A DNA stretch of 64,000 nt from an uncultured Candidatus Saccharibacteria bacterium (GTDB lineage: Bacteria > Patescibacteriota > Saccharimonadia > Saccharimonadales > JACDBH01), in the NCBI GenBank assembly GCA_964644965.1, contig CAZXYN010000005.1:9759-73758 (forward strand), read 5' to 3'. A model generated the notes under the pieces. That model saw nothing but the letters and a program-made list of their open reading frames with translations, was not told the origin of the DNA and did no database searches. The position numbers and the translations under genes were made by a program. Shown here in pieces: positions 16,881-61,918 of this stretch; positions within the stretch are counted from its first letter, which is position 1; every line of letters begins with the position of its first letter.

Positions 16881-16931
16881 GTCGAGGTTTCTAAGGTTTA
16901 GAGAACTTCGATTTTCTTGACCGTGTCCTGT

Positions 16932-17019
16932 CTAGTAGTAGAGCTTCGTGTAATTTTGCTCTTAAGCAAAATAAAACACCCCAGTTTCCTGGGGGTGTTC
17001 ACGAAGCCTCACTACCGGG
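16932..17019 (-). repeat. hairpin repeat element, copy 1 (GTAGTGAG/TCTACTAC family)
   Basis: Arms CTAGTAGTAGAGCTTCGTG (16932-16950) and CACGAAGCCTCACTACCGGG (17000-17019) are inverted repeats enclosing two internal hairpins (TTTTGCT/AGCAAAA; AACACCCCAG/CTGGGGGTGTT followed by T-run on minus strand); 11 nt downstream of hsp20 stop. Confidence 0.75.
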
Positions 17020-17717: not shown

Positions 17718-18392
17718 ATGCGTTTGATCGAACAATTTTTCAGAATCGTCGCACCATCCAACTGTTTGATGTGTCGTACCGAAGGTAGCTTACTGTGCGC
17801 CTGGTGTATTGAAGATGCTTTGCCGCAGCATCAGCCTCGTTGCTATCGCTGCAACGCATTGACCTCAGAGAGTTCAATCTGTGCAAACTGCAAGCGAAAA
17901 ACAGCTCTCAGAAGTCTGTGGATACGTACCGAATACTCTGATACAGCCAAGAACCTGGTTCATATGATGAAATTTAAGTACTCAGGCGAAGCAGCTGACA
18001 TTCTGGCCACCGAACTGGTGAACACAATCCCTGCCCTGTCGCCAGAAACAATCGTTGTAGCAGTACCTACAATCACATCGCATGTACGTCAGCGCGGATT
18101 TGACCACACCAAACGCATTGTTGCACGGATTTCTGCCATGACCCCATATTCTAGTCAGCAAGTGCTTGTTCGGATGGGTCAGCATCGCCAGGTTGGTTCT
18201 AGTCGAAAGCAGCGTTTGACCGAAGTAACTAATAGTTTTCGGGTCAAAAGCCCATTTGTGGTCAAAAATTGCCCCGTTGTGCTGGTAGATGACGTGCTGA
18301 CCACTGGTGCAACGCTTGAGGCAGCAGCCAAGGCTCTACGACAAGCTGGCGCTTCGCGGGTAGACGCGGTGGTTTTCGCCCGCGCCCGGTAG
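17718..18392 (+). CDS. comF: ComF-family phosphoribosyltransferase-domain protein
   Basis: N-terminal Cys pairs (CLMCRT...CAWC, CYRC...CANC) and C-terminal PRTase motif VVLVDDVLTTGATL; ATG 17718 chosen, TTG 17697/GTG 17700 are in-frame alternatives. Confidence 0.8.
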   Translation: MRLIEQFFRIVAPSNCLMCRTEGSLLCAWCIEDALPQHQPRCYRCNALTSESSICANCKRKTALRSLWIRTEYSDTAKNLVHMMKFKYSGEAADILATELVNTIPALSPETIVVAVPTITSHVRQRGFDHTKRIVARISAMTPYSSQQVLVRMGQHRQVGSSRKQRLTEVTNSFRVKSPFVVKNCPVVLVDDVLTTGATLEAAAKALRQAGASRVDAVVFARAR

Positions 18393-18458
18393 TAGACTTT
18401 CGTGCTGCCAGCAAAAGCTGGCTATTGGATGGGAGGTTCACGAAAGCTCACTACTGGG
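18385..18458. repeat. hairpin repeat element, copy 2 (GTAGTGAG/TCTACTAC family)
   Basis: Arms CCCGGTAGTAGACTTTCGTG (18385-18404) and CACGAAAGCTCACTACTGGG (18439-18458); internal hairpin GCCAGC-aaaa-GCTGGC; left arm contains the comF stop codon TAG 18390-18392. Confidence 0.75.
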
Positions 18459-26956: not shown

Positions 26957-29527
26957 CTACAACTCCTTGGAAGCTTCGGCAAAAGAGTCTATCTCAGCAT
27001 TTACCTGTTGCAAGCGTAGCTCGCTGTCGGTGAGCTGTTGCCTAGTTTCGGCCACTAGTTCCTTCGGTGCGCTCTTCACATATGATTTATTGGCGAGCCG
27101 TACCTTTAGTCTCTCTACAGATAGAGCCTCGGCAGTTTGCTGTTCTTGGAGCTTGGTCAGATAATTGCGGGCGGTTTCGTGATCGACAGCAATCCAGCAG
27201 TCTTCGCTCGTCTGCGTCAGATGGAGCCCAGTGCCATCACGTACGTGTGAGACGTTCTCGAGCCGCGCAAGCTGCTTTACCAGCTCGCCATGATGCTGGA
27301 GCAGTACGGACTCTTTGTAGTACAGCTGCGGCTTGGCAATACCTAGGTTTTTTACGATTGACCGAGCCTCTACCACTAACTCCTTGATAGCTTCAAACAC
27401 AGCTGTTTCATCCTTGATACTAGTCTCTTGCTTTGGCCAGGCACTGGAAATCAGCAAGCTGTCTTTCTCCCACTTCAGGGTTTGCCAGATAGCCTCTGTC
27501 ACAAACGGCGCGAACGGATGGGTAATCTTCAGCAGTGTCTCTAGTCCGTAGGCCAGAATGCCATGATTTGGCTTGCCCTTGCTGGCCTCGATGTACCAGT
27601 CAGCAAAATCATCCCACAGCGTGTGATAAACAGTGTCGTAGGCTTCTGAGAAACGGTAGTTCTCGATATCGGCAGACACTTTTTCAACTGACTGTTGTAA
27701 TTTGGACAATATCCAGTGATCGGCAGGTGTTTCAGGATGAGGCTTGTGTCTACGGTCGCGTACCCCCTCGGGGCTGTCGCCAATCACGCCTTCGACAAAT
27801 CTAGCTACGTTCCACAGCTTGTTACAGAAATTACGTCCAGCATCAATCTTGCCAGGTGCGTAGGCAGCGCTAAATCCAGCACTGCGCCCAGATATGATTC
27901 CCATGCGTAGGGCATCGGAGCCGTGGCTTGCAATGACTTCGTTCGGGTCAATTACGTTGCCGAGAGATTTGCTCATCTTGCGGCCGTCTTCGCTCCTGAC
28001 CATGCCGTGCAGATAAACGGTCTTGAAAGGCACTTCACCAGTTACGTACAGCCCGAGCACAATCATGCGTGCCACCCACTGGTATAAGATGTCGATGCCG
28101 GTTTCCATCAGATCAGTCGGGTAATATTTATTGAAATCACCTTCTGGGTAGTCCAGCGTTACGTACGGCCACTGACCGCTAGAGAACCAAGTATCAAACA
28201 CATCTGAATCACGGCGGTAAGTTTTGCCTTCTACCTCTATAGTTTCGGAGGCTACTCGTTCGTCAAAAATCCAGTCGTCACTGTCCTCAACATTCTGAAA
28301 CGCCGGAATCGGGATACCCCAGGCGATTTGCCGTGAAATATTCCAGTCTTTGACGCTCTCTAGATACAAAATCGTCTGATCGCGCTTGCTTGCCGGGTAG
28401 AATGTCACCCGGTCGTCCTTTAGCGCCTTGATAGCCGGACCTGCCAGTTTTTTCATATCAATAAACCACTGATCCATCAGCATTGGCTCAATCACGGTGC
28501 CGCATTTGTAGCACTTCCCTACTCTGTTGCTGTAGTTCTCGTCTACCTTTTCGAGCAGACCCTTTTCCTTGAGTGCTTTGGCAACTGCTTTGCGAGCTTC
28601 TGCCACTGGCATACCGGCAAAATCCCCTGCCCTATGGTTCATTGTGCCGTCGTGATTGATGACCCGGATTGCCTCTAGATTGTGTCGCTGAGCAACCTCC
28701 CAGTCGTTGAAGTCATGAGCTGGGGTAATCTTCACCGCCCCTGTTCCGAACTTGGGATCTACATATTCGTCGGCAACAACACGTACCTCAAACGGGCCGT
28801 TTAGACCTTCGGCGGTAATTGTCTTGCCCACTAAATCTTTGTAACGTTCGTCGTCTGGATGAACAGCCACCGCCGTATCACCAAACTTTGTCTCTGGACG
28901 GGTGGTTGCTAGCGTAAATGGGCCGTATTTTAGGTAATACAGCGGGCTGGTCTGGTCTTCGTGTACTACTTCGATATCGGCAAAGCTTGTACGGTGGAAG
29001 GTACAGTAATTTACTAGGCGTTCGCCCCTGTAAATCAGCTTGTCATCCCACATCTTTTTGAACGTACTGTAGGCAGTTTTGACCACTTTTTCGTCTAGTG
29101 TGAAGGTGAACCGGCTCCAATCTACGGATGCACCCAAGGATCGCAGTTGCTTTTCAAAATTACCTTTGTTTCCTTGTACAAAATCATAAATCTGGCCGTA
29201 AAGCTCCTCGCGGCTGAAATCAAACCGACTCTTGCCTTCCCTAGCCAAGTGCTTTTCGTAGACAACCTGTGTCTCAAACCCAGCATGATCCGCCCCTGGT
29301 AAAAACAGTGTAGACTTGCCCTGCATACGGTGATAGCGGACCGCGATATCCTGCAACGAATAGTTGAGAGAGTGACCAATATGCAGATTGGCATTAGCGT
29401 TTGGCGGCGGCATGATAGTAGTAAATGTGTCGCCATTTTCTTTTGGCTCAAAGGCGCCACTTTTTTCCCACAAATCGTAGATTGTAGACTCGTATTCGGC
29501 TGGTTCGTATACCTTAGGTAAATTCAT
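26957..29527 (-). CDS. valS: valine--tRNA ligase
   Basis: PPPNANANLHIGH (HIGH), RKMSKSLGN (KMSKS), C-terminal coiled-coil; ATG 29527 (MNLPKVYEP) preferred over 29572. Confidence 0.95.
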   Translation of the reverse strand: MNLPKVYEPAEYESTIYDLWEKSGAFEPKENGDTFTTIMPPPNANANLHIGHSLNYSLQDIAVRYHRMQGKSTLFLPGADHAGFETQVVYEKHLAREGKSRFDFSREELYGQIYDFVQGNKGNFEKQLRSLGASVDWSRFTFTLDEKVVKTAYSTFKKMWDDKLIYRGERLVNYCTFHRTSFADIEVVHEDQTSPLYYLKYGPFTLATTRPETKFGDTAVAVHPDDERYKDLVGKTITAEGLNGPFEVRVVADEYVDPKFGTGAVKITPAHDFNDWEVAQRHNLEAIRVINHDGTMNHRAGDFAGMPVAEARKAVAKALKEKGLLEKVDENYSNRVGKCYKCGTVIEPMLMDQWFIDMKKLAGPAIKALKDDRVTFYPASKRDQTILYLESVKDWNISRQIAWGIPIPAFQNVEDSDDWIFDERVASETIEVEGKTYRRDSDVFDTWFSSGQWPYVTLDYPEGDFNKYYPTDLMETGIDILYQWVARMIVLGLYVTGEVPFKTVYLHGMVRSEDGRKMSKSLGNVIDPNEVIASHGSDALRMGIISGRSAGFSAAYAPGKIDAGRNFCNKLWNVARFVEGVIGDSPEGVRDRRHKPHPETPADHWILSKLQQSVEKVSADIENYRFSEAYDTVYHTLWDDFADWYIEASKGKPNHGILAYGLETLLKITHPFAPFVTEAIWQTLKWEKDSLLISSAWPKQETSIKDETAVFEAIKELVVEARSIVKNLGIAKPQLYYKESVLLQHHGELVKQLARLENVSHVRDGTGLHLTQTSEDCWIAVDHETARNYLTKLQEQQTAEALSVERLKVRLANKSYVKSAPKELVAETRQQLTDSELRLQQVNAEIDSFAEASKEL

Positions 29528-29842
29528 CAAGTGTTCCTGTGCCCAAGCGTCCTGGCTACGAGCAGAGCTCATAGCTCTGACGCTTGTTTTGGCGAATTAC
29601 TGCGTTGCCTGTTGCGACTACTCCCTTCACCGTACCTCAGTACGGCTCGGTCCGTTGCTCACAGGCGCCTTGTACTTCATCCAAACACAGGACACTTGTC
29701 GCTTATTTGTACTTTTAGAGTATATCACCTCTGTTAATATTAGCCTACCTTTCCCTGAAAGCGCCCTTCCAGAGTCTTCACATGAAAAAAGACGCACAAA
29801 ATAGCACGCCTTTTCACACGAAAAGATTCAGCTTTTGCTGTA

Positions 29843-30006
29843 ACCGTTTCTTGTGAACACCACACTCTGTTTTGTCGGGACAGACGGTTGATAATTGGTG
29901 TCTCGGGAGAAGCATTTCGTGAGTAAGGCATATCTGTAAGATATGTTGAATGAGCGAAATCTTCTCGCGGGCGCCAAGTGCGGGCGTCTGCCGATAACAC
30001 AGAGTG
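29843..30006. repeat. 164-bp long imperfect palindrome with perfect 18-bp termini
   Basis: GTGAACACCACACTCTGT (29843-29860) and ACAGAGTGTGGTGTTCAC (29989-30006); inner complementary blocks TCGG, CAGACG, GAGAAG, ATTTCG, CATATCT on both arms. Confidence 0.8.
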
Positions 30007-30101
30007 TGGTGTTCACCTAAAAGTGCGATCCCAGCTCCTGGGACAAACGAGAGTTTTTATTTTCCCTTCCATGGTAAACCCGCAGAAAAGCATATGCAAT
30101 A

Positions 30102-30130
30102 TTGACAAATATTGCCTCTTATGCTAAAAT
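30102..30130 (+). promoter_or_regulatory. sigma70-type promoter
   Basis: TTGACA (30102-30107), 17-nt spacer, TAAAAT (30125-30130), 23 nt upstream of ATG 30154. Confidence 0.65.
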
Positions 30131-30153
30131 GTATCTGTTAATCAAAAATAAAC

Positions 30154-30834
30154 ATGTCAGAAGCACCTCACGCACATGCTCCAATAGATGTAGACAAGCT
30201 GTCTCCAATGAACAGTTCTGACTTACTATTTGAACACCCAGCTACGCCAAACAAAATTGTTAGATTCAGTAGTGAGTTTGGCTTTGGCGAAGAAGGTGAG
30301 GCTCAGATTGCCGCCACTCTTGAAGGACTAAAAACAGTGCAGGGATTATATTCTGAACTTGAGTCTGCCTATAGTATCAAAACCGCAGGATTCTACCCAT
30401 CAGTAACCCAAACAAACAGGGGTGGGGCAGAAACAATGATTGTCAGCAACCGTGTAGAGGGTAGGGGTTTTACCTCGAATGATATGCTGCCGGACGATAT
30501 TAAACCCGCCGCGGCAAAGCTTTTTGATAACTTATCAGCCTACATCAGTAGCAAGCGTACTCAAAACCAACCATTTCTGAGTGATATCTTTGGTATCGAA
30601 CAGTATGTATACGATGAAAAACAGCAGGACTTTGTCCTGGTAGACACTGATCCGTACTATGGTGAAAATGCCGGTAATGACACCAAATATGCCTGGTCAC
30701 TCCATGAGCTCGCTACCTGGGCAGGGCAGGTGCTTGACCCTGAAGCTATAAAAAATTGGCAAGAAAAGATGGTAGAGAACGATAGTTCAGAGCAGCTCCC
30801 CATGATCATAGCTCGTATAGCCAGTATGAACTAA
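30154..30834 (+). CDS. hypothetical protein
   Basis: 226-aa ORF downstream of consensus promoter; no motif recognised with confidence. Confidence 0.6.
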   Translation: MSEAPHAHAPIDVDKLSPMNSSDLLFEHPATPNKIVRFSSEFGFGEEGEAQIAATLEGLKTVQGLYSELESAYSIKTAGFYPSVTQTNRGGAETMIVSNRVEGRGFTSNDMLPDDIKPAAAKLFDNLSAYISSKRTQNQPFLSDIFGIEQYVYDEKQQDFVLVDTDPYYGENAGNDTKYAWSLHELATWAGQVLDPEAIKNWQEKMVENDSSEQLPMIIARIASMN

Positions 30835-31944
30835 CTACATCGAAAGATTCGGTTGGATTTCTAGAGAGTAGGGGTCAGCCGTTGGCTGGCCAAGTTGGGT
30901 CTTGAATGCGCCCAGAGCGGCAATCATCGCACCGTTATCAGTACAGAGTCTAGGGTCCTGATACCTGATTTCTATTGGTAATCGCTCAGCTAACTGCCTG
31001 CGTAGCTCAGGGCTGGCAGCTACACCGCCAGCGATTACAACTGAGGCAGGGGAGAACTCTTCATAGGCGGTAATTGTCTTATCGACGACTGTTTCTATGG
31101 CTACACGTTGGAATACCGCAGCAATGTCGGCCTTCTGAGCCTCAGAGAGCCTTCCTGCCAAGTTTTTGGACGGAAACGTGTAATCTGCTCCTATCATGGC
31201 CTGAGCTTGCCGTAGGACGGCTGTTTTTAAGCCCGAGAAGCTAAAGTCGTACTTTCCGTCCATTCTAGCCTTTGGTAGAGAGAAGGCTTTTGGGTCGCCC
31301 TCGAGCGCCTTTTTACCGACAGACGGGCCGCCGGGGTAGGGCAGGCCGATGATTTTGGCGACTTTATCAAAAGCTTCGCCAACTGCGTCATCTTGCGTCT
31401 GGCCGAGCAGAGTGTAATCAAAATGATTGCGGAACAGGGCAAGCTGGCTGTGCCCGCCGCTGACAATCAGTGCCAAAATTGGGAATTTTGGTGCAGTAGA
31501 CGGTAGACGGTAGACGGTAGACAGGGTAGGGGATGCGGCAGTAATAAAGTTGGCGTAGACGTGGCCCTCTACATGATTAATCCCATAGAGTGGCTTGTTT
31601 TTGGTTATCGCTAGCGTGCGCGCTGTCATAACGCCAACCAATAGGGAGCCGCCTAGTCCAGCACCATACGTCACCGCTACGGCGTCAATCTGATCCCAGG
31701 GATCAGATTTGGTAGATGGATGAGCTTCAGATATTGCCTCATCTATGACGGGGATAATCGATTCAATATGGCTGCGGGCGGCTATTTCTGGCACCACACC
31801 ACCATACTGTACGTGCAGATTAGCAGAGGAGGCTACGACATTAGATAGCAGGGTAAGTTGATTATCGTCATCAATCTCGACCACCGCAGCAGCAGTCTCA
31901 TCACAGCTCGACTCTATACCCAATATCCTGAGAGGTTTTGTCAT
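30835..31944 (-). CDS. tsaD: tRNA N6-adenosine threonylcarbamoyltransferase
   Basis: ILGIESSCDETAAAVV, HVEGHVYA, LIVSGGHSQL motifs; ATG 31944 (MTKPLRILGIESS) preferred over 32019. Confidence 0.9.
   Translation of the reverse strand: MTKPLRILGIESSCDETAAAVVEIDDDNQLTLLSNVVASSANLHVQYGGVVPEIAARSHIESIIPVIDEAISEAHPSTKSDPWDQIDAVAVTYGAGLGGSLLVGVMTARTLAITKNKPLYGINHVEGHVYANFITAASPTLSTVYRLPSTAPKFPILALIVSGGHSQLALFRNHFDYTLLGQTQDDAVGEAFDKVAKIIGLPYPGGPSVGKKALEGDPKAFSLPKARMDGKYDFSFSGLKTAVLRQAQAMIGADYTFPSKNLAGRLSEAQKADIAAVFQRVAIETVVDKTITAYEEFSPASVVIAGGVAASPELRRQLAERLPIEIRYQDPRLCTDNGAMIAALGAFKTQLGQPTADPYSLEIQPNLSM
31497..31524. repeat. tandem heptamer (TAGACGG)x3 plus TAGACAG inside tsaD
   Basis: Read directly; encodes LSTVYRLPST in a loop that is longer than in the E. 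coli TsaD sequence as recalled. Confidence 0.85.
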
Positions 31945-32094
31945 TAGTATTAGCTTAACAGATAACTGCATGGTACTTATTTGAAAAAAACACAAAAAAA
32001 GGCTACAAGTTATTGACAAAAAGCTTATGTTTTGCTATAATGGTGCTATTACAACATAAAAACACAAAAATTATCAAAGCAAGGAATTAATCAC

Positions 32095-33675
32095 ATGAGT
32101 ACAATCGAACAACTACCACAACGCCAACCACGACAAGAACAGCCAGAAGAGGCTGTAGCTATCGACACTGCCGCTATCAATGCAGAGCAGATAGCCGCAC
32201 AAGCACAGGCAGATCAGCTCGAAACTGAAATGAACGGTGCATATTCTAGCCTTGGCAATCGCCATACATATGCAGTAGATGCAGAAACTGGCAAAAAGCA
32301 GGTTGTAAAGCGCGAAGAGGCACTCAATAAAGCCGACGAGCTTAACGGTATGCGCAGTGTCGCTGCAGGTGATACCAATGGCAAATCTTGGGCTGAGATG
32401 TCTGATGGCGAACAGCTTGCCAAGGCAAAACTCGATGGTTACAAGGATGCGTATATTGACCGAAAATCCGACACTCTCATTCAGGGCAAAAAGACTAAAG
32501 CTCCAAAAACATCAGAAGAAATCGATCAAATCCAGGATAAGAAACAAGCTCGCATAGACGCACGCGCTATCCGAAATGGCAAAGATACTACAGAACCAAG
32601 CCAGGAAGCTGACCAAGCAGAGGAAACACGTGAGACATTTACTGCTCGTGAGCTACTAAACACCTGGGTTAAGGCAATTGACTCTGATGACAAAGAGACA
32701 GCAGCACATGTTGCTGATGAGATAGAGGACATGACTGGTGTTGTCACAGAAGAAGACATGTCCAATGCAGAACACCGTGCTGAGTTAGAAGCAGCCCCAG
32801 CCAAGCTGGCTGCAGTCTTGCGACAGAAAAGTGCCGCTGGATTAGAAACAGAGGCCAAGAAAGCCAAGCCAAGCGAAGAATTCGATTCGCTAATCAAGGC
32901 CTGGGCACTTGCCGAGAAGAATAACGACGCTGAAGGCGCTCAGCTTGCTCAAGATAAATTACAGCAAATAATCACTGCAGGCCAAGAAAATGGTCTCATC
33001 TCAGAAGACAAAATTGCTGATCTTATCAAGGAAATGAACATAGCCAAAGAGGCACATCTAAAGATGCTGCGAACCGAAGACAAGCCAGCTCAGAAGCTCT
33101 ATGACTATGAAGAAATGGTTAAAGAGCCAGTTGTTGAAACGACTACCGTAGAAGCAGTTGACGTAGAATCTGAGGAAGAAGTTGCTAAAGAGGCAGGCAT
33201 GATTGCCGCTATCAAGGCACGATTTACTTCTATCAAGGAAAAAGTTGGTGAAAGACTAACCACTCGAAAACAGAAGATAGCTGTAGCCGCAGGTGCAGTA
33301 GCACTAGTTGCTGGCGGAATGTTCGGAGCATATCTAATGAACACCAATGACGGTGGTTCTAGCGAAGGTGATGCTCCACTCAGTGAATTGTTTGAAAACG
33401 ATGATATTGAGGCTGGAGCAAGCTCAACTAGTGAAGTAGCCAATCCTGCAAACCAGAACATTGATGTATCTCAGTACAGCTGGGATGTTGCTAATCAGTT
33501 AAGTCCTGGTAATGAAGGTAGTGTCATACAGGGAGCGGTTGATCGCTATAACGAAGCTCATGGCACTGGTTTTGCCTTGACTCCGCATAACGGCTCGACC
33601 TGGATCATGGATGGTGCCCGTGCAATCAGCCCTGCCGAGATGGCCGAGCTAAACAACTTGATGCAAGCTGCCTAA
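32095..33675 (+). CDS. hypothetical Glu/Lys/Ala-rich protein with one TM helix and C-terminal globular domain
   Basis: 526 aa; long charged helical-looking region, TM IAVAAGAVALVAGGMFGAYLM near aa 400. Confidence 0.6.
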   Translation: MSTIEQLPQRQPRQEQPEEAVAIDTAAINAEQIAAQAQADQLETEMNGAYSSLGNRHTYAVDAETGKKQVVKREEALNKADELNGMRSVAAGDTNGKSWAEMSDGEQLAKAKLDGYKDAYIDRKSDTLIQGKKTKAPKTSEEIDQIQDKKQARIDARAIRNGKDTTEPSQEADQAEETRETFTARELLNTWVKAIDSDDKETAAHVADEIEDMTGVVTEEDMSNAEHRAELEAAPAKLAAVLRQKSAAGLETEAKKAKPSEEFDSLIKAWALAEKNNDAEGAQLAQDKLQQIITAGQENGLISEDKIADLIKEMNIAKEAHLKMLRTEDKPAQKLYDYEEMVKEPVVETTTVEAVDVESEEEVAKEAGMIAAIKARFTSIKEKVGERLTTRKQKIAVAAGAVALVAGGMFGAYLMNTNDGGSSEGDAPLSELFENDDIEAGASSTSEVANPANQNIDVSQYSWDVANQLSPGNEGSVIQGAVDRYNEAHGTGFALTPHNGSTWIMDGARAISPAEMAELNNLMQAA

Positions 33676-38186: not shown

Positions 38187-38316
38187 TAACTGCCAATTTA
38201 CCAGTTACCATTCCTCAATTATTTTACCAATTACCAATTTTTCAGAAATGGCCAATAGAAAATAATTTGGAAAATCAGCAAATGATAAATGATAATTTCA
38301 ACAAAGGGAGTAAATG

Positions 38317-39963
38317 ATGAGTAAAAAAGTATTTTATGAAGAAGATGCCCGCCGACGCGTACTCGAGGGCGCCAAGATTTTGTACGATGCAGTCAAAACA
38401 ACCATGGGGCCAAAGGGTCGCAATGTTGTAATTAGCAAGGGTTACGGAGGCCCAACTGTCACGCACGATGGTGTGACAGTGGCAAAAGGTGTCGAAATTG
38501 CCGATGTAGATGACGAAACACTAGGCTACAAAGTCGGTGCAGAGCTTATCAAGCAAGCCGCCAACAAAATGAATGATGTCGCTGGCGACGGCACAACCAC
38601 AGTCACAGTGCTGACTTATCACATTCTGAACGAAGCCAACAAGCTGATTGCTGCTGGCCATAATCCAATGCAACTCCGCAAGGGGCTCGAAGCAGCCGCT
38701 CACGATGTAATCAAGGCACTGGACAAGCAACGCGAGAATATCGCTGGTGATTCTAAGCGTGTGGCAGAAGTAGCCACGATCTCTGCTGGTGACGCCGAAA
38801 TCGGTAAGCTAATTGCTGACGTAATCGGCAAGGTTGGCAAAGAAGGCGTTGTGACCGTAGAGGAAGGCCAGGGGCTTGATCTGGAGAGCGAAGTTGTCGA
38901 GGGCTTTACCTTTGACCGCGGATTCCAGAGCGCTTACATGGTAACTGACACAGCTCGTATGGAAGCGGTGCTAGAAAAGCCACATATCGTGGTAACAGAT
39001 AAGAGAATCGGTTCGTTGCAAGAATTCCTGCCAGTGCTCGAAAAAATTGCCCAGACTGGCAAAAAGGAAGTTGTAATCATCGCCGAAGATATTGAAGGTG
39101 ACGCCCTGGCAACACTAGTGCTGAACAAGCTCAAGGGCGTGTTGAACGTGGTGACTATCAAGGCGCCATCGTTTGGTGATCGCCGCAAAGATATTCTGCA
39201 GGACATCGCGATTCTAACTGGTGGTAGTTACATCGACAGCGAGCAACAGTTTGACACAGTCGAGCTAGGCGATATTGGTACGGCTCGCAAGGTGATTGTC
39301 ACTAAGGACGAGACGACAATTATTGAAGGTGCTGGATCAGTTGCCGAGCTCAAAAACCGTATTTCTCAGATTTCTACCCAAATCAAGAATGCTTCTAGTG
39401 AGTATGACCGTGAAAATTACGAGAAGCGCCGTGCAGCCCTAAACGGCAAGGTGGCTGTCATCAAAGTGGGCGGTGCTACCGAGACCGAAATCGAAGAGAA
39501 AAAGTATCGTGTAGACGACGCCGTGGCTGCTGTGAAGGCTGCGCTAGACGAAGGAATCGTAGCCGGTGGTGGAGTGACGCTAATCAATGTGTCTACTTCT
39601 ATCGTTGATAGCTCTAAGGACGATGCTACAGTCAGTGCCGGCAAGACAATTCTAGCGAATGCGCTGGAGCAACCTTTTAGAATTCTACTGACAAACGCTG
39701 GCCTCAATGCTGACGAATGGCTGCCTCAGGTCAAAAAAGGCAAGCCGGGCCAGGGTGTAAACGTCAATAATCCAACCAAGCTAGTTGATTTGAAGTCTGC
39801 TGGTGTTGTTGATCCAGCCCGCGTGACCAAAGAAGCTGTCCAGAATGCGGTATCGATTGCTGGTACGGCTATCACCATGGGCGCGCTTGTTGTAGATGTG
39901 CCAGAGCCAAAATCTGCTGCAGCCCCTGATATGGGTGGTATGGCGGGAGGGATGGGCTTCTAG
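38317..39963 (+). CDS. groEL: chaperonin GroEL
   Basis: MSKKVFYEEDARR...TMGPKGRNVV...AGDGTTTVTVL...C-terminal GGMAGGMGF; AGGGAG RBS; ATG 38314 alternative. Confidence 0.95.
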   Translation: MSKKVFYEEDARRRVLEGAKILYDAVKTTMGPKGRNVVISKGYGGPTVTHDGVTVAKGVEIADVDDETLGYKVGAELIKQAANKMNDVAGDGTTTVTVLTYHILNEANKLIAAGHNPMQLRKGLEAAAHDVIKALDKQRENIAGDSKRVAEVATISAGDAEIGKLIADVIGKVGKEGVVTVEEGQGLDLESEVVEGFTFDRGFQSAYMVTDTARMEAVLEKPHIVVTDKRIGSLQEFLPVLEKIAQTGKKEVVIIAEDIEGDALATLVLNKLKGVLNVVTIKAPSFGDRRKDILQDIAILTGGSYIDSEQQFDTVELGDIGTARKVIVTKDETTIIEGAGSVAELKNRISQISTQIKNASSEYDRENYEKRRAALNGKVAVIKVGGATETEIEEKKYRVDDAVAAVKAALDEGIVAGGGVTLINVSTSIVDSSKDDATVSAGKTILANALEQPFRILLTNAGLNADEWLPQVKKGKPGQGVNVNNPTKLVDLKSAGVVDPARVTKEAVQNAVSIAGTAITMGALVVDVPEPKSAAAPDMGGMAGGMGF

Positions 39964-39995: not shown

Positions 39996-40077
39996 CCCAG
40001 TAGTGAGCCTTCGTGTCCATCCGCCAAAGGCGGATGCATGGTTCGCCTGGCGAACCGCACGAAGATCTACTACTGGG
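39996..40077 (+). repeat. hairpin repeat element, copy 3 (GTAGTGAG/TCTACTAC family)
   Basis: Arms CCCAGTAGTGAGCCTTCGTG (39996-40015) and CACGAAGATCTACTACTGGG (40058-40077); two internal hairpins TCCGCC-aaa-GGCGGA and GGTTCGCC-tg-GCGAACC; 33 nt after groEL stop. Confidence 0.8.
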
Positions 40078-40100
40078 TATGATGGGCATGTAAGGCTTTT

Positions 40101-40169
40101 TTGAGAGGGGGTATCCCCCTCTCAACGCGCCGGGAAGCGAATGAATCGCTTCATCGGGCTGCTCTCCCC
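40101..40169 (+). repeat. 69-bp two-hairpin intergenic repeat, copy 1
   Basis: TTGAGAGGGGGTATCCCCCTCTCAACGCGCCGGGAAGCGAATGAATCGCTTCATCGGGCTGCTCTCCCC; about 90 percent identical to 45785-45853. Confidence 0.8.
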
Positions 40170-40260
40170 ATGGCCTGTGCAGGCTAGGGGTTATTTTTTC
40201 AGGCGAGATTGTTGCGAGCATTGCCAAAATATAGTAAAATCAGTCAAAAGGGAGACGTTC

Positions 40261-40821
40261 ATGGCACTGTTTAACCGCAATAAAGACAAATCAGCACTAC
40301 CAGAAATCGACAAATACTACGACGGCGAACGACGTGATCGTTCGGGTCTTGCGTGGCTTCTTGCCATGGTGTCGGTTATTATCGTAACCTTGCTTATAAT
40401 CGGGCTTTTTCTCTTGGGTCGGTGGGCATATCGTTCATTTATCAGTGACAACAACAGTGGCGATACTACAAGTGAACAGCAGGATGGCAATGAAGATGCT
40501 CCTAGTTTTGACGGTGGTGGCAGCTCAGATGACGGTTCGGACAGTGAAGCGAATGATGGTGAGACTGATGAGCCAGATGATTCTGAAGGTTCCGCTGACG
40601 ATTCCTCAGACGGCAGCTCATCTACAGACGGTGAAGAAGGTAGCGTAGATGCACCAGTTCGCACTGACACACCAAGCGACTCAACAGCTCAAGTCCCTGC
40701 AACAGGTGATGACCCACTACCAAACACTGGTCCAGCTGGAATTGCTACAGTATTTATGGGTGTATCGACACTCGCCGGTGGTGTTCATTACATCGTTGAG
40801 CGCAAGCGCTCCAAGCAATAA
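40261..40821 (+). CDS. LPXTG-type sortase-anchored surface protein, Asp/Ser/Gly-rich
   Basis: ATG 40261 with GGGAG RBS; N-terminal TM/signal LAWLLAMVSVIIVTLLIIGLFLL; C-terminal LPNTG + hydrophobic helix + RKRSKQ. Confidence 0.75.
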   Translation: MALFNRNKDKSALPEIDKYYDGERRDRSGLAWLLAMVSVIIVTLLIIGLFLLGRWAYRSFISDNNSGDTTSEQQDGNEDAPSFDGGGSSDDGSDSEANDGETDEPDDSEGSADDSSDGSSSTDGEEGSVDAPVRTDTPSDSTAQVPATGDDPLPNTGPAGIATVFMGVSTLAGGVHYIVERKRSKQ

Positions 40822-48454: not shown

Positions 48455-48580
48455 ACTCCGTATTATACACTAATCTAAATATTTAAATATGTAAATACTT
48501 AAATATATATTGCCAGACGCTGACTTCTGTAAATAATCAGGTGATAACATCAAAATAGCGTATAATACCACCAGATATGG

Positions 48581-48903
48581 ATCATGTAGTGAGCCCTTGA
48601 TGAGCATTATGTTCTACGTATATATACTTCAATCAGAAGATAAAAAGCGACTTTATATTGGTAAGACCCAAAATCTTAATAGACGGGTTAAAAAACATAA
48701 TGCCGAACAAAATGCATCTAACAAAGCTTATACGCCTTGGACTTTGATTTTCTACGAGGCATACACTAACTATGATGATGCAACTAGACGTGAAAAATAT
48801 CTTAAAACTACTCAAGGACACCAGGCTATCAGAAGAATGCTCAGCAAACATTTAGAGAAGTATAATGAGATGCATTTTGAGCATCAAGGATCTACTACGT
48901 GAT
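48581..48903 (+). mobile_element. GIY-YIG gene cassette with short terminal inverted repeats, copy 1
   Basis: Left ATCATGTAGTGAG (48581-48593), right TCTACTACGTGAT (48891-48903); paralogous to 61193-61514 at DNA and protein level including non-coding left end. Confidence 0.6.
48609..48902 (+). CDS. GIY-YIG nuclease superfamily protein (UPF0213-like)
   Basis: MFYVYILQSEDKKRLYIGKTQNLNRRVKKHN...REKYLKT; start set by alignment with paralog at 61220. Confidence 0.85.
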   Translation: MFYVYILQSEDKKRLYIGKTQNLNRRVKKHNAEQNASNKAYTPWTLIFYEAYTNYDDATRREKYLKTTQGHQAIRRMLSKHLEKYNEMHFEHQGSTT

Positions 48904-50557
48904 GGAACAGATGAGAGAGTTGATCGCTAACCGAATAAGCCAGCTGTACGGCCAAGAAGTGCCAATAGTGTTTACGCGTCCGGACGAACAGTTCGGCGAT
49001 TTTTCGACCAATGTTGCCATGCAGCTTGCTAGTAAGGTTGGCTCTAATCCGCGAGAGATTGCCCAATCTATTATCGACAATCTGTCTCACGACGATATTG
49101 CCAAGGCCGAAGTCGCTGGTCCAGGATTTATCAACCTGACTCTAAGCGACCAAGCACTTACAGACCTAATAGCTGCTGAACCCACCAAAATTTTTGCCGA
49201 AGAATCAGTTGTGATTGAGACCAATAACCCGAATCCGTTCAAGGCCATGCACATTGGTCATGCCTTTAACGCAATCGTGGCTGATACGCTTGCCAATCTG
49301 ATAGAAGCGGCCGGTGCACACACCTACCGCGTCAGCTATCATGGTGATGTTGGTCTTCATGTTGGCAAGAGTATGTATAGTTTGCTGCGCTACGTAGACG
49401 GCGAGCCAAACAAGCTGCTAGACGTTCCAGAGGAAGAGCGCAATAGCTTCATGTCGCGGATGTATGCCGAGGGTTCTGCTGCTTATAAAGAGGACGGTTC
49501 GCTGGACAGCGGAGCCAGGGCAGAGATTGATGAGCTTGCCAGGCAATCATTTACCCGCGAGGATGCTACCTATGCTGCTGTCTATGAAATTTGTAGAGAT
49601 TGGAGCTTTGAACAGATTGATACAAATGTTGCGCGGCTAGGTAACAAGCCAGTGGAGCGTAGGTTCCTAGAGAGTGATGCCGAGCATAGAGGCGTAGAAA
49701 TTGTCAAAAAGAATACCCCAGCTGTGTTCAAAGAAAGCGATGGTGCATTAATATTCGAGGGTAGTAAACATGGCACGTTCGACAATGCTTTTGTTAGCGC
49801 ACGCGGTACAGGGCTGTATGCTTCGCGTGATCTTGGTTTAATCCAGCTCAAGAATGAACAGTATCACCCAGATAAGAGTTATATCGTCACAGCAGAGGAG
49901 CAGCGGGATTATTTCAAGGGAGTAATTGCGGCTGCTGAATTATGCATGCCTGATCAAAAGGGCGTCACCATCAACATCCCAACCGGCACAGTCAAGCTAA
50001 CAACTGGCAAGATGAGCTCGCGTGATGGCGACGTGGTAGAGATTGGCTGGTTGTTTGACCAAGTAGCTAGCGCCATCAAAGAGCGCGGTGGTTCGGCCAG
50101 TGATCAAGACATTGCCGGCGCACTGCGCTATCAGTTCTTGCAGGTGCGGATTGGTAGTGACGTGGTGTTTGACATCGAAAATTCGGTTAGTATTCACGGC
50201 AACTCCGGACCGTATTTACAGTACGCACACGCAAGGGCTCGCAGTATTTTGCGCAAGGCGCAAGAAGTTGAAAGTGAAAAGTTGAAAGTCGAAAGTTTGC
50301 AAAAGGCCGAACGCAGTCTGGTCCGAAAAATCGGCGAGTACAACGAGGTTGTAGGGAGAGCAGCTGACGAGCTAATGCCGCATCACATCTGTCATTATCT
50401 GCATGAGCTGTCTCAGAATTTTAATTCGTTCTACGAACACAACCGAGTAATTGGTGACGCGCGCGAGGGTACTCGTCTAAAAATCGTAGAGCTTTATGCA
50501 GACACACTAAAGCGCGGTCTAGAGCTACTAGGTATTAACGCCCCAGAACAAATGTAG
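48899..50557 (+). CDS. argS: arginine--tRNA ligase
   Basis: 552 aa; HIGH-type MHIGHAFN, anticodon-binding C-terminus ending in M; start GTGATG overlaps GIY-YIG stop. Confidence 0.95.
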   Translation: MMEQMRELIANRISQLYGQEVPIVFTRPDEQFGDFSTNVAMQLASKVGSNPREIAQSIIDNLSHDDIAKAEVAGPGFINLTLSDQALTDLIAAEPTKIFAEESVVIETNNPNPFKAMHIGHAFNAIVADTLANLIEAAGAHTYRVSYHGDVGLHVGKSMYSLLRYVDGEPNKLLDVPEEERNSFMSRMYAEGSAAYKEDGSLDSGARAEIDELARQSFTREDATYAAVYEICRDWSFEQIDTNVARLGNKPVERRFLESDAEHRGVEIVKKNTPAVFKESDGALIFEGSKHGTFDNAFVSARGTGLYASRDLGLIQLKNEQYHPDKSYIVTAEEQRDYFKGVIAAAELCMPDQKGVTINIPTGTVKLTTGKMSSRDGDVVEIGWLFDQVASAIKERGGSASDQDIAGALRYQFLQVRIGSDVVFDIENSVSIHGNSGPYLQYAHARARSILRKAQEVESEKLKVESLQKAERSLVRKIGEYNEVVGRAADELMPHHICHYLHELSQNFNSFYEHNRVIGDAREGTRLKIVELYADTLKRGLELLGINAPEQM

Positions 50558-51057: not shown

Positions 51058-51324
51058 ATGTACATCGTAAAGTTTCTAAAGAGAAAAGATGCGGCAACGC
51101 TGATAGTTGGTATCATCCTAGCCGTAATTATCGCCGGTATTCTACCAGCGGTCACCAGTGACCTAGCAACTTACCTAGCAGGTATCGAGACTGCTCAGGC
51201 AACCGAGTGGCGCGAGAACGTGATTCGTCCGCTTATAAGTGCTGGTCTGCAGATTGTAGTACTCGAAGCAATCCTTCGGGTTGTTGTCTATGTACGACCA
51301 TACTTCGTTCGCAAGAAGCGCTAA
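51058..51324 (+). CDS. hypothetical small membrane protein
   Basis: 88 aa, two hydrophobic helices, basic tail. Confidence 0.5.
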   Translation: MYIVKFLKRKDAATLIVGIILAVIIAGILPAVTSDLATYLAGIETAQATEWRENVIRPLISAGLQIVVLEAILRVVVYVRPYFVRKKR

Positions 51325-51347
51325 ATAATAAAAATTAGCCACCAGAT

Positions 51348-51382
51348 ATCGCCCGGAAACTAGTCTTTTCGGGCGATTTTTA
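51348..51382 (+). terminator. rho-independent terminator
   Basis: ATCGCCCG-gaaactagtctttt-CGGGCGAT followed by TTTTT. Confidence 0.65.
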
Positions 51383-51399
51383 TGTCGTATACTAGAAGT

Positions 51400-51786
51400 A
51401 TGCAGCAGGGAACACATCTTACCGATGAACAGATACGAGTCCTAAAGCACGGTGATACCGAGGCACCTTTTAGCGGTGCGTTCCTGCATAACATAGAGCA
51501 GGGTATATATATTTGTGCCCAGTGCGATGCGGTTTTATTCGATTCCAAGACAAAATTCGACAGTGGCTCTGGCTGGCCGAGCTTTTACAATGTGGCTGAC
51601 AAGGGCAATGTAGCGCTAGTCGAATATTCCAGCCACGGTATGCAGCGTATTGAGGTCAAGTGTGCAAACTGCAACGGTCACCTGGGGCATGTGTTTCATG
51701 ATGCGCCAGATCAGCCAACGGGCATGCGGTTTTGCATTAATTCATTAGCCCTTAACTTCAGGAAAGAAGGCGGCGATGAAAGTTAA
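51400..51786 (+). CDS. msrB: peptide-methionine (R)-S-oxide reductase
   Basis: CAQCDAVLF, GSGWPSF, CANCNGHLGHVF, RFCINS; ATG 51400 preferred because ATG 51382 lies in the terminator T-run. Confidence 0.9.
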   Translation: MQQGTHLTDEQIRVLKHGDTEAPFSGAFLHNIEQGIYICAQCDAVLFDSKTKFDSGSGWPSFYNVADKGNVALVEYSSHGMQRIEVKCANCNGHLGHVFHDAPDQPTGMRFCINSLALNFRKEGGDES

Positions 51787-52165
51787 CATATCTGCAGACG
51801 GTATTGGACTGGAGCTTCATGGAAAGGAGCAGTTTTGGGCAGTGCGGGCAAAAATTAACGTGCCTACAAAGACGATTAAAGACATTCGGTTCGAGCCAAA
51901 GTTCCAAGATTGGCGCAAATGGCAGGTCCGCATGCCGGGTACTCACGCACCAAAGCTATTGCTAGCAGGTTCATACTGGACAGAGCTTGGCTGGGACTTC
52001 TTGTATATTAAGAAGCCGAATAATTTTATAAATCCTAGGGTAGACGACGTGTTGGTGATAGAAACCGATCAGAACCGCTATACTAGGGTCATTATTAGCA
52101 GCGACGAAAAAGAGGCCAAGAAAGTTATAGCCTGGTGGAAGAAACAGAAGAAACCCAAGAAGTGA
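51776..52165 (+). CDS. hypothetical protein with Lys-rich tail
   Basis: 129-aa ORF overlapping msrB stop by 11 nt. Confidence 0.5.
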   Translation: MKVNISADGIGLELHGKEQFWAVRAKINVPTKTIKDIRFEPKFQDWRKWQVRMPGTHAPKLLLAGSYWTELGWDFLYIKKPNNFINPRVDDVLVIETDQNRYTRVIISSDEKEAKKVIAWWKKQKKPKK

Positions 52166-53385
52166 ATAAGCCATTCTACAAAAGGCGTCCATCTAAGCGG
52201 ACGCTTGTTCTTCTTGGTCTTGGCGGGATTATTATAGTGATTATTCTGTTACTGCTATTTCTGTTTGTACAAACCTCAGATGCACCGGGTCCAGAAGAGA
52301 ATAAATCTGCAGAGTCTAGCCAACAAACAGAGCCAAAGACCTCGATTACTATGTTGGCCACAGGTGACTGGATTGCTCATGATGTAATCAACGAGGTTGC
52401 AGGCAGCAGCGGTGAGTTTAATTACGCCAGTATGACCGAACCAATGCGGCCATATTTTGAACAGACAGACATAAATTTTTGTAATCTGGCGACACCCGCT
52501 GGCGGCGTTCAGCATGGAATTAGCGGATACCCGGTGTTCAATGCGCCGCTAGAGTGGAACCGCGATATGCATGGCCTAGGTTGTAACCTAATTAACACCG
52601 GCACGAACCACACCAATGACAAGGGTCAAGCAGTGATCACATCAGAACTCAATGACTGGGACGGCAAAGAAAATGTGCTCGCTCATGCTGGTGCTAACCG
52701 TAGCATAGACGAGATGAATACAGTTCGATACTTTGAGCGTGATGGTGTAAAGTTTGCGTTCTTGTCCTACAGTACGTACTCCAACTCGCCAAACCCCGAG
52801 GTCTACAGCCTGACTCGCTTTACCGAACCGCTAGTCACAACCCAGATGACAGAAGCACGGGCAAATGCCGATGTGGTGATTGTTAGCATGCGCTGGGGCA
52901 CAGAATATTCATCTGGAATAAGTGCTGCTCAGGAGCTCGCTGCACAGAAACTAGCAGGGCTTGGTGCTGATATCGTGCTTGGTCATGGTCAGCATGTGCT
53001 GGGCCCAGTAAAACAGCTGCCACGGGCTGACGGTGGTGAAACAACCGTCTGGTATGGACTAGGCAATTTCCTGAATGCACAGCTAGAGACAGAGGCGCTA
53101 ACTGGCTGTGTGGCGACTTTTGATATTGATATTGCCAGCAAAAAGGTCAGTGGTTCTGGCTGTCTGCCGTTTTACCAACACTATGAATGGACGGCTGCAG
53201 ACAAAGCCGCCGGGCGTTTGTTGACACGAGGTAACTTCCTGATCATGCCGCTATATAATGCAGCCGAATACCTGGCGCGACCGGACGCTCACCTAGAAAC
53301 GACAGTCGAAGAGCAGATGAATCGCATCAGTGGCATAGTGAACACCTACACCGAGATCCCATTGCGAAACGCCGACGATCTATAA
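52135..53385 (+). CDS. CapA-family (PGA_cap metallophosphatase-like) membrane-anchored protein
   Basis: TM LVLLGLGGIIIVIILLLLFLFV; MLATGDWIAHD, NLATP, NTGTNHTNDKG, GHGQHVLGP motifs; start uncertain (GTG 52135 or GTG 52162). Confidence 0.7.
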   Translation: MEETEETQEVNKPFYKRRPSKRTLVLLGLGGIIIVIILLLLFLFVQTSDAPGPEENKSAESSQQTEPKTSITMLATGDWIAHDVINEVAGSSGEFNYASMTEPMRPYFEQTDINFCNLATPAGGVQHGISGYPVFNAPLEWNRDMHGLGCNLINTGTNHTNDKGQAVITSELNDWDGKENVLAHAGANRSIDEMNTVRYFERDGVKFAFLSYSTYSNSPNPEVYSLTRFTEPLVTTQMTEARANADVVIVSMRWGTEYSSGISAAQELAAQKLAGLGADIVLGHGQHVLGPVKQLPRADGGETTVWYGLGNFLNAQLETEALTGCVATFDIDIASKKVSGSGCLPFYQHYEWTAADKAAGRLLTRGNFLIMPLYNAAEYLARPDAHLETTVEEQMNRISGIVNTYTEIPLRNADDL

Positions 53386-53533
53386 TTGACAAATCTACGC
53401 GTACAAGGCGTACAAGGTTCGACCTTGTACAAACTTGTACAAAAGTGAACACCTACACCGTCGTACAAGGTCGAACCTTGTACAGAGAACCTTGTACAGA
53501 GAAATCCCGGTAAGAAACGCCGACGATTTATAA
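53386..53533. repeat. GTACAAGG/CCTTGTAC palindromic mini-repeats plus diverged duplicate of the capA-like 3' end
   Basis: GTGAACACCTACACCG (53338-53353) recurs at 53445-53460; ATCCC..GAAACGCCGACGAT.TATAA recurs at 53504-53533; two hairpins GTACAAGG-ttcga-CCTTGTAC and GTACAAGG-tcgaa-CCTTGTAC; tandem AACCTTGTACAGAG x2. Confidence 0.85.
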
Positions 53534-53579
53534 CAAGGCGCTTCTCAGTTTCTAAATGATAAGCTAAAGTAAAAGCAAC

Positions 53580-54371
53580 ATGGAGATAAAATCTGCGGCT
53601 TCTGAAGCGAAGAGGAAGTATGTCACCGAAGTAAATACTTTAATTGGTGATATAAAAAAGGCCGTTAAAAATGGCAAAGTTTCGGAAAATGATCAGATAG
53701 ACTTGCAGGTCCGGCTTGATACGATCGCAGATCTGTATCAGGAAGATGAATCTATCGGTAAAAGTGCATACAAAATGTACTATGCCCAGGCAGTGTTACA
53801 TTCTTATAGCGGCAAACTCTCACTGGCAAACCAATTCCTAGAGTCAGCTGAGCAGAAAAACGGCGAAAACTTCGTAGCCGGTGATGAGCTTCGGCAATTT
53901 TTTGGTTTGTCAGACGATGGATCGCCAACTAGTCAAGCCCACGGATCCAAGAAAAAGGTAGCTTCTTCGAACAAAAGAATCGTGAATTATATTGTGGATA
54001 TTGGATTTTGCTATTTGTTAATGGTACCGGTTGCTATTATTACTGCTGCCTTGGATTCGGCTAGCCCAGGGTTATTTTTTGACCCATATACAGGCGCGGC
54101 GAACCTCGGGGTATATCTGATCGCCTTTATCGTAATGATTCATTATTTTGTAACTCTTGAAGCTTCATTTGGCTGGACGATTGGAAAACTAATCACGAAA
54201 ACCAGGGTTATAAGTGAAAAGGGTTCGGGGCGGGGTACATGGCAAATCTACAAGCGTTCTTTTGCAAGGTTTATTCCTTTTGAAGTTTTCTCATTCATAG
54301 GCAGCAATCCCGTGGGTTGGCACGACAGACTCTCTGGCACGCGGGTCGTAGATAAGCCAAAAAAATTATAG
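53580..54371 (+). CDS. RDD-family membrane protein with N-terminal soluble domain
   Basis: C-terminal half has three TM helices and WHDRLSGTRVV ending typical of RDD domains. Confidence 0.65.
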   Translation: MEIKSAASEAKRKYVTEVNTLIGDIKKAVKNGKVSENDQIDLQVRLDTIADLYQEDESIGKSAYKMYYAQAVLHSYSGKLSLANQFLESAEQKNGENFVAGDELRQFFGLSDDGSPTSQAHGSKKKVASSNKRIVNYIVDIGFCYLLMVPVAIITAALDSASPGLFFDPYTGAANLGVYLIAFIVMIHYFVTLEASFGWTIGKLITKTRVISEKGSGRGTWQIYKRSFARFIPFEVFSFIGSNPVGWHDRLSGTRVVDKPKKL

Positions 54372-54378
54372 TATCAAC

Positions 54379-57112: not shown

Positions 57113-57148
57113 TAAGAAATATTTGATATTTGAGGGGTTAGCAGCTTT

Positions 57149-57190
57149 CTAATAAAATAAACCGCCGTTAGGGGCGGTTTATTTTATTAG
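57149..57190. terminator. bidirectional terminator, 18-bp perfect inverted arms
   Basis: CTAATAAAATAAACCGCC-gttagg-GGCGGTTTATTTTATTAG between convergent orn and surface-protein genes. Confidence 0.7.
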
Positions 57191-57221
57191 ATATCAAGTA
57201 TCAGATATATGGCGGTAGCCA

Positions 57222-61082: not shown

Positions 61083-61192
61083 CTGAAACTCCTATTCAGT
61101 TACTCGAATTACCTAAAATTATACACCCGTGGTACTAAAAAGTCTAATTGTCAAACCTATGAATAAATTATCTGTATAATAGGGAGCAATGA

Positions 61193-61884: not shown

Positions 61885-61918
61885 TTTGGTATACTAGCGA
61901 TATTACATAGGAGTGAAC

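Follow-up and report, generated by a model that had tools for sequence, protein, structure and literature searches.

Among described systems, the nearest to the elements considered here are the Ssn nucleases, single-domain GIY-YIG proteins of ~94 aa that cut only single-stranded DNA, and do so next to hairpin repeats (Chenal et al. 2025, PMC11893778). These repeats flank the nuclease's own gene and are also scattered through the genome, and the insertion sequence-like appearance of the NTS-ssnA-NTS layout was remarked upon by the same authors (PMC11893778). In Neisseria, the Ssn system has been proposed to modulate transformation or recombination. GIY-YIG ORFs have further been reported from non-intron insertions in the rRNA genes of CPR bacteria (PMC11270868), and these insertions may be the same elements as those described below. 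A first-pass annotation of the DNA studied here had supposed that a link between GIY-YIG genes and hairpin repeats was undescribed. This cannot be upheld, as a comparable link has been published for Ssn/SRM (PMC11893778), with a different motif and geometry. The published SRM motif (HGTCWY..YYVSBRH..WNVSBRG..RNCYNB) has no match anywhere in the window, that is, in the whole 64-kb stretch of DNA that was analysed (0.33 expected from shuffles), but it does flank the control genes, left and right, in two contigs, L196 and L138. These contigs (from IMG/VR, classed as viral) carry NTS-ssnA-NTS units at 7789-8161 and 936-1330, respectively, each with a GIY-YIG ORF between inverted ATTCCCGCG...GCGGGAAT hairpins.

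The window has a GC content of 47.6% and encodes a T4SS-type pilin, which is typical of CPR bacteria. Its GIY-YIG proteins have homologues in Patescibacteria or Saccharibacteria only, and one Logan contig (run SRR16797988) is 100% identical to positions 51220-64000. The window contains three ORF-less hairpin elements (E1, E2 and E3) and two GIY-YIG cassettes (C1 and C2; 321 bp, or 320-321 by their coordinates). All five share the same ends, consisting of a variable terminal stem of 4 bp, the motif GTAGT, a 3-nt core and a variable stem of ~8 bp. In all five, one arm has GAG as its core and the opposite arm AGA.

The hairpin element from which this work started, E3, occupies 39996..40077 on the plus strand, encloses two interior hairpins and begins 33 nt past the groEL stop (ORF 38314-39963), counted from the last base of the stop codon. 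Its arms read CCCA-GTAGT-GAG-CC-TTCGTG ... CACGAA-GA-TCT-ACTAC-TGGG, and its flanks (CCTG and TATG, 2/4 matching) form no exact 4-bp repeat. Directly past it, within 40078-40130, tATGATGGGCATGTAA forms a five-codon mini-ORF (four sense codons and TAA), the start of which resembles the rebuilt starts beside cassettes. It is followed by a perfect hairpin, gagagggggtatccccctctc, and then by an ORF without a Pfam match (40141-40821).

The second element, E1 (16931..17019, with the start at 16931 or 16932), lies on the minus strand, on which its GAG arm comes first, 11 nt past the hsp20 stop. It too has two interior hairpins, and one of them precedes a U-run when read in the hsp20 sense. This part of the interior (16952-16999, minus strand), where a GC-rich hairpin runs into UUUUAUUUU in the sense direction of hsp20, resembles an intrinsic terminator lodged within the element. 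The outer stem of E1 is degenerate on one side (TCTA vs CGGG) and its flanking 4-mers match at only 3/4 positions. The third element, E2 (18385..18458, minus strand), has a single interior hairpin and is flanked by a 5-bp direct repeat, CCGCG; the stop codon of a comF-like ORF (17697-18392) is the TAG within its GTAGT (18390-18392). Two chaperone genes in the window, hsp20 and groEL, thus bear an element. The 3′ end of hsp20 also carries a family member in another Saccharibacteria genome (L005, 14152-14237), located within the last hsp20 codons and supplying the TAG. Since the two hsp20 elements differ in their stems, core polarity and insertion points, they are probably independent insertions at the same gene end.

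Both cassettes lie on the plus strand and carry an ORF of 97 aa. C1 (48582..48902; ORF 48609-48902) has the arms TCAT-GTAGT-GAG-CC-CTTGATG ... CATCAAG-GA-TCT-ACTAC-GTGA and is inserted at the argS start codon, with TGGA duplicated at 48578-48581 and 48903-48906; the same site is filled in another locus, L001. C2 (61194..61513; ORF 61220-61513) has the arms TCAT-GTAGT-GAG-GT-TCTGAT ... ATCAGG-AC-TCT-ACTAC-ATGA and is inserted at the start codon of a yjbR-family gene, with TGAA duplicated at 61190-61193 and 61514-61517. To the left of C2, a host promoter-like TATAAT, the Shine-Dalgarno (SD) sequence and the old ATG are retained. A TGATG overlap joins the nuclease stop to the host start in both cassettes, and both keep the old SD and ATG on the left. 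The two GIY-YIG copies in the 64-kb window are 70% identical.

Much of what the first-pass annotation had proposed for these elements is borne out. It had placed three hairpin elements at E3 (39996-40077), E1 (16932-17019) and E2 (18385-18458), with arms enclosing one or two small hairpins, and all three are indeed present, folding with a closing stem of ~20 bp (z = -4.3 to -7.3). The arm motifs GTAGTGAGNNTTCGTG and GTAGTAGANNTTCGTG each occur three times in the window (0.32 and 0.26 expected, respectively), with one of each per element. The asymmetry it noticed is equally clear: every hairpin element has one GTAGTGAG-NN-TTCGTG arm and one GTAGTAGA-NN-TTCGTG arm, and both cassettes show GTAGTGAG on the left and TCTACTAC on the right of their 97-aa PF01541 ORFs. 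The 8-mers it considered to be shared by element ends do sit at hairpin or cassette termini, in 5/5 window sites for GTAGTAGA and 5/6 for GTAGTGAG. Only the element ends need a small revision, the true ends lying 4 bp outside GTAGT/ACTAC.

These five elements belong to a much larger family. A profile built from 38 GIY-YIG homologues retrieved 80 loci (~1.1 Mb) from Patescibacteria genomes, spanning Saccharibacteria, Paceibacteria, Doudna-, Gottesman- and Nomurabacteria, and others. The left-arm pattern retrieved 19 metagenome contigs, in which we recognise 12 real hairpin elements (11 distinct), the rest being chance matches inside genes. Together, ~1.2 Mb of related DNA was examined for GTAGT...ACTAC pairs with complementary neighbours, leaving the three positions after GTAGT free. 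This search gave ~60 cassettes (297-379 bp, with a GIY-YIG ORF) and ~30 ORF-less elements (52-149 bp). In both classes the terminal arms are a 20-bp imperfect inverted repeat, and the core is heterotypic in 90/90 elements, with GAR on one arm and AGA on the other. When either strand is folded, the arms form one long stem with a tandem G.T and A.C mismatch, which sits 5 bp inside the variable terminal stem.

To control for circularity, cassettes were also located by protein homology only, with no pairing required. GTAGT upstream and ACTAC downstream were present in 59 of the 80 protein-located loci, with the tandem mismatch in 57 of these 59. In the stems of these cassettes, Watson-Crick pairing over the 4 outer and 8 inner bp averaged 0.89, compared with 0.51 (maximum 0.56) when arms were re-paired between loci, and each stem position was occupied by 2-4 pair types. 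Stem pairing is under selection. A structure-only search, accepting any 5-bp stem with the tandem mismatch and paired neighbours, returned 99 matches against ~0.1 estimated by chance. Ninety of these have GTAGT, and the others are singly compensated variants (GTAGA/TCTAC, GTACT/AGTAC, GAAGT/ACTTC and others) in which the mismatch is retained. Stem sequences vary even among copies of one genome (TTCGTG, CTTGATG and TCTGAT in the window) yet stay complementary. The eighth arm base is lineage-specific in both classes: Saccharibacteria have G, and other lineages A.

Relative to the ORF, the core occurs in either polarity (37 vs 20), which changes from one subfamily to another and also among members of a single arm subfamily (L041 vs L025). 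Two explanations for polarity were considered and rejected. In the window, the switch in GAG-first orientation coincides with a GC-skew minimum at ~30 kb, but across 89 elements core polarity shows no relation to local GC skew. Nor does polarity follow transcription, with 6 sense and 6 antisense among small elements and 3 and 3 among mid-size elements in co-directional contexts. The cumulative skew minimum itself (window 28000-33000) is where the skew turns from negative to positive, in the manner of a replication origin; no adjacent gene is DnaA-like, the neighbours being tsaD, a Mur ligase, a ValS/IleS-type tRNA synthetase and two ORFs without a Pfam match.

Across the ~1.2 Mb, the GIY-YIG gene is the only ORF ever enclosed by these ends. 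No larger parent element of 500-6000 bp with the same ends was found in this DNA, the single match above 500 bp being an artefact in which the outer arms belong to two different short copies. Elements do occur in tandem or nested (L042 3040-3483, the right flanks in L013 and L016, and L020 10290-10392), either as a short element directly followed by a cassette or as a cassette followed by another left arm. The L042 composite is flanked by TAAAA on both sides.

With the element boundary set precisely 4 bp beyond GTAGT/ACTAC, 36/59 cassettes and 16/30 short elements are flanked immediately by a perfect direct repeat of 4 bp. Other registers yield 0-1 such cases, and across all alternative boundaries and offsets the count is 0-4. 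The register is the same in both classes, and cassettes and short elements therefore share their ends and their target-site duplication. Empty sites are also available. The dnaG start is empty in L100, which is 100% identical to the window genome and reads ATGGATGC here, and is filled in five other Saccharibacteria loci (L003, L004, L007, L008 and L009), where it reads ATGGA[element]TGGATGC. Conversely, L003 and L004 have an uninterrupted yjbR start, at which the window carries C2 and a duplicated TGAA. Such pairs of filled and empty orthologous sites show real mobility. One short element is found at the same site in two genomes (L052 941-1009 and L077 4782-4852), where the flanks are identical and TGGA is duplicated; between the two copies the interior hairpins differ in sequence but still pair.

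Insertion is concentrated at gene boundaries. In 48/59 cassettes, no more than 10 nt separate the right end from an ATG. The genes that begin there are diverse and mostly of the housekeeping kind: argS and yjbR in the window, and dnaG-, RNase Y-, EF-G-, AlaRS-, RuvA- and PGK-like genes elsewhere. The target duplication reads TGGA, TGAA, ATGA or TATG, so part of the start codon is always included, and the start codon is rebuilt at the right end of the cassette; in elements of the TC..GA type, the element's final A becomes the A of ATG. Ten loci whose cassettes are without a host ATG showed no rRNA context. The same host gene is filled in several genomes (dnaG in five; rny-like, argS and fusA-like genes in two each), a pattern that long vertical residence or homing fits as well as transposition does. 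Short elements occupy tiny intergenic gaps, and in 6 of ~20 small elements, the comF-like case of E2 among them, the upstream ORF ends at the TAG within GTAGT. We infer that this placement mainly reflects survivorship in gene-dense genomes, together with the need of a promoter-less nuclease gene for host expression signals.

Short elements and cassettes have in common only their arms of ~17-21 nt, and the interiors of the short elements are unrelated to the ORF. Within these limits, the resemblance can be very close. At one locus (L056), both arms of a short element and a cassette are 18/18 identical, and a rare compensated GTACT core is found in a cassette (L043) and a short element (L055) of the same genome, JACQJI01. 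A 1.8-kb contig (L083) bears a cassette together with a TTCGTG-type hairpin. A TTCGTG-armed cassette that could be the direct parent of the window hairpins was not found among the 19 metagenome matches.

The short elements fall into two size classes. Those of 60-95 nt almost always enclose two hairpins, so that the whole forms a three-way junction, and these hairpins are kept despite sequence turnover (interior z-scores of -2.2 to -8.8, the shortest element excepted). The interior hairpins were judged from individual folds, since a MAFFT alignment of the interiors is inconsistent and RNAalifold recovers only the closing stem. Inspection by eye of the three-way junction revealed no hammerhead-like or other ribozyme core. 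Against Rfam 15, only tRNAs reach the gathering score in the window, and nothing credible appears around E3 at E <= 10. Elements of 120-149 nt have AT-rich, unstructured interiors and sit mostly on start codons. They include L020 17430-17561, L064 8809-8936, L026 14836-14984, L057 2012-2157 and L012 8279-8408, a class with a narrow size range and with related copies in different genomes; their cargo may be a promoter or a small peptide.

The hairpin repeats and the GIY-YIG cassettes are thus very probably two cargo classes of one mobile family. The first-pass annotation had suggested that the repeats are MITE-like derivatives, or recognition sites, of the GIY-YIG element, and here its proposal needs to be divided. 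That the short elements are MITE-like, non-autonomous partners of the GIY-YIG element is supported, because the two classes share their arm design, asymmetry and duplication, the matching arms in L056, the GTACT core and the lineage-specific eighth base. They have terminal inverted repeats (20-bp arms), small size (52-149 bp) and no ORF, as well as a duplication of fixed length at one register in 16/30 cases. The short elements were also considered as deletion copies of the cassette, and this is ruled out: only the arms match and, because the interiors are unrelated to the cassette ORF, they are not simple deletion derivatives.

Both window ORFs encode proteins of 97 aa in which PF01541 covers residues 1-70/72, with no other domain. 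Residues invariant in the 38 homologues include Y5, Y16, G18, R26, H30 and E50, the GIY and YIG tyrosines among them. In the Saccharibacteria proteins, the conserved ...QGSTT at the C-terminus is simply an in-frame translation of the right arm. The best matches among solved structures are UPF0213 proteins and SLX1 structure-specific nucleases, and TIGR01453 scores 21-24 bits against a cut-off of 56. For the Ssn clade (cd10448), the published requirement is a blastp match to N. meningitidis SsnA at E < 1e-10 and 75% coverage. The NTS-flanked ORFs from the viral contigs served as a proxy for N. meningitidis SsnA, and against such an ORF the window protein shows 34% identity over 64/97 aa (E 4e-9) and an hhalign probability of 97%, which is no closer than to UPF0213 proteins. 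No plasmid homologues of the window protein were found at E <= 1e-3. Three loci (L024, L063 and L068) carry homologous GIY-YIG genes without GTAGT arms; 40-50 nt upstream of the ORF they have a small hairpin with a conserved ..CGTATGG.. loop, perhaps a second type of repeat whose arrangement is nearer to that of Ssn.

How might such elements move? We lean towards the view that they form one family in which each element with an ORF encodes, in its nuclease, the enzyme for its own mobility, with the ORF-less hairpins as non-autonomous partners in trans. That the GIY-YIG nuclease drives the mobility of both classes is, to our minds, slightly better than an even prospect. Under this proposal, the nuclease would recognise a folded single strand, as a hairpin or cruciform, carrying the fixed mismatch, much as Ssn nucleases act at hairpins, and would process its own element and, in trans, the ORF-less hairpins. 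A staggered target break of 4 nt, followed by host repair, would generate the duplication. Translational coupling would make start-codon insertions nearly harmless in gene-dense genomes, and would let a promoter-less nuclease use host expression signals.

We suggest that the nuclease acts on folded arms because the stems vary and yet pair, because its Ssn relatives behave in this way, and because the window protein resembles the NTS-flanked ORF. Variable, complementary stems around an invariant mismatch appear to fit recognition of a folded strand or cruciform better than recognition of a duplex site, and covariation of the two ends is also expected from co-evolving transposase binding sites. 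A hydrolytic GIY-YIG nuclease cannot join DNA, and insertion would therefore have to rely on host functions; we know of no precedent for a GIY-YIG transposase. It is a tentative reading, which we would put somewhat short of even, that these are the smallest self-contained bacterial transposable elements (~300-320 bp) and a new insertion-sequence class with a GIY-YIG 'transposase'. Similarly tentative is the corollary that such an enzyme would recognise its own ends as a hairpin with a G.T/A.C mismatch, and so move both itself and its ORF-less partners.

The combination of inverted repeats and a duplication of fixed length is the classical signature of DDE enzymes, and the elements might accordingly be ordinary MITEs moved by an unrelated transposase, with the GIY-YIG gene a passenger, for instance a selfish stabilising or homing nuclease. 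A lone hydrolytic nuclease of 97 aa is unlikely to be a complete transposase, and the interiors of the short elements, unrelated to the cassette, would suit such an arrangement. We nevertheless consider it unlikely: no longer element with these ends occurs in ~1.2 Mb, the GIY-YIG ORF is the sole protein cargo across phylum-level diversity, and inner and outer stems that differ within a genome while remaining complementary point to recognition of structure rather than of a fixed binding site. Those same stems could instead act in RNA, as a helix of ~20 bp with G.U and A.C wobbles that undergoes processing or stabilisation, perhaps by RNase III in the manner of rRNA intervening sequences, or as mRNA 3′-end, terminator or processing elements beside which the GIY-YIG gene is a passenger. 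In RNA, wobble pairing would accommodate the two mismatches, and neither strand folds better than the other; the elements lie within operons, directly past stops or on starts, and would be co-transcribed; E1 places a terminator-like hairpin and U-run behind hsp20; and in the 60-95-nt class the pair of interior hairpins persists while their sequence turns over. The GIY-YIG ORFs in non-intron CPR rRNA insertions (PMC11270868) can be read in the same way. The 4-bp duplications and empty sites are, however, the marks of DNA-level insertion, the elements are oriented evenly with respect to transcription (6 sense and 6 antisense among small elements, 3 and 3 among mid-size ones), no Rfam family matches, and the nuclease as sole enclosed ORF is left unexplained. 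An RNA-level role is distinctly unlikely as the explanation of these elements, and could be an added property rather than an alternative.

A last possibility is that we are looking at a domesticated Ssn-like system, in which a single-strand endonuclease serves the host and the hairpins are dispersed recognition sites that are no longer mobile. The architecture does parallel NTS-ssnA-NTS, the same host-gene sites are filled in several species, and Patescibacteria are thought to rely on DNA uptake, with comF adjoining E2. Set against this, RAYT-like domesticated systems are typically single-copy, whereas there are several nuclease copies per genome at different sites (two in 64 kb), and target duplications are intact and sites can be found empty. 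Domestication is thus very unlikely to account for the family, and we retain the reading in which the nuclease is the element's own mobility enzyme.

If the nuclease does move these elements, it would represent a fifth kind of enzyme in bacterial DNA transposition and offer a minimal model of ~300 bp. Ssn-type single-strand nucleases would likewise be extended to Patescibacteria, with a different substrate, namely a stem in which the tandem mismatch is defined. An enzyme able to read such a mismatch in a folded strand could also serve as a tool. The family explains a puzzle in CPR annotation, that of tiny 'GIY-YIG nuclease family' genes fused to housekeeping starts, the ...QGSTT tail being repeat DNA. 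The start and stop codons of essential genes are rewritten (argS, dnaG, fusA-like, comF-like and hsp20-adjacent cases), and the elements therefore matter for gene calling and gene expression.

Several known systems share parts of this design. REPINs and their RAYT partners resemble it in having ~80-nt elements with two inverted arms, a long hairpin and GTAG at the outer ends, in the partner gene lying between inverted copies, and in the short, dispersed, intergenic nature of the repeats. The partner here is a GIY-YIG protein (PF01541), whereas RAYT is a Y1 (HUH) transposase; GTAG is paired within the stem here and an unpaired tag in REPINs; and only here are duplications present and the nuclease gene multi-copy. 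Bacterial MITEs (Correia elements and those derived from DDE insertion sequences) resemble it in outward form, with terminal inverted repeats, a fixed-length duplication, no ORF, and only the ends in common with a larger ORF-bearing partner, and they too are often located at gene boundaries, where they affect start and stop codons. In contrast to MITEs, the partner here is only ~300-320 bp and encodes a nuclease rather than a DDE, serine or tyrosine transposase, and the stem positions covary freely around an invariant mismatch.

The GIY-YIG homing endonucleases (I-TevI, Seg, Mob) are also selfish nuclease genes found beside or inside conserved housekeeping genes, with the same gene site filled in several genomes. 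In the I-TevI and Seg types, the GIY-YIG domain is N-terminal and a DNA-binding region follows at the C-terminus, and the genes, intron-borne or free-standing, have no inverted-repeat ends. Unlike them, the proteins described here are without a DNA-binding domain (97 aa vs >200 aa), and they come with inverted-repeat ends, duplications and ORF-less companions. Elements of the IS200/IS605 group and integron attC sites are recognised as imperfect hairpins through conserved irregularities, as we propose for this family. Their enzymes, however, are HUH or tyrosine recombinases, IS200/IS605 elements make no target duplication, and the family described here has no strand or replication bias.

The strongest likeness remains that to Ssn/SRM. 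Both systems pair a single-domain GIY-YIG protein of ~95 aa with inverted repeat copies that bracket its gene, fold as hairpins and also occur without the gene; such gene-free copies number three in the window and ~30 in related loci. The two differ in geometry, as the flanks here are halves of one stem around the ORF and the SRM flanks are two self-contained hairpins of 28 nt. They differ as well in sequence, with GTAGT and the tandem mismatch conserved here instead of the CGTC-tagged SRM, in the 4-bp duplications and start-codon sites found here, in the C-terminal tail of the nuclease, and in the host phylum, Patescibacteria, which is absent from PMC11893778. A search of the open-access full-text literature found no GIY-YIG elements with inverted-repeat ends and duplications, nor a Patescibacteria GTAGT repeat. 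A small GIY-YIG nuclease gene with dispersed hairpin repeats is already known (Ssn/SRM, 2025), and the present family appears to be widespread in Patescibacteria and undescribed in this form, with a real chance of representing a new class of insertion sequence.
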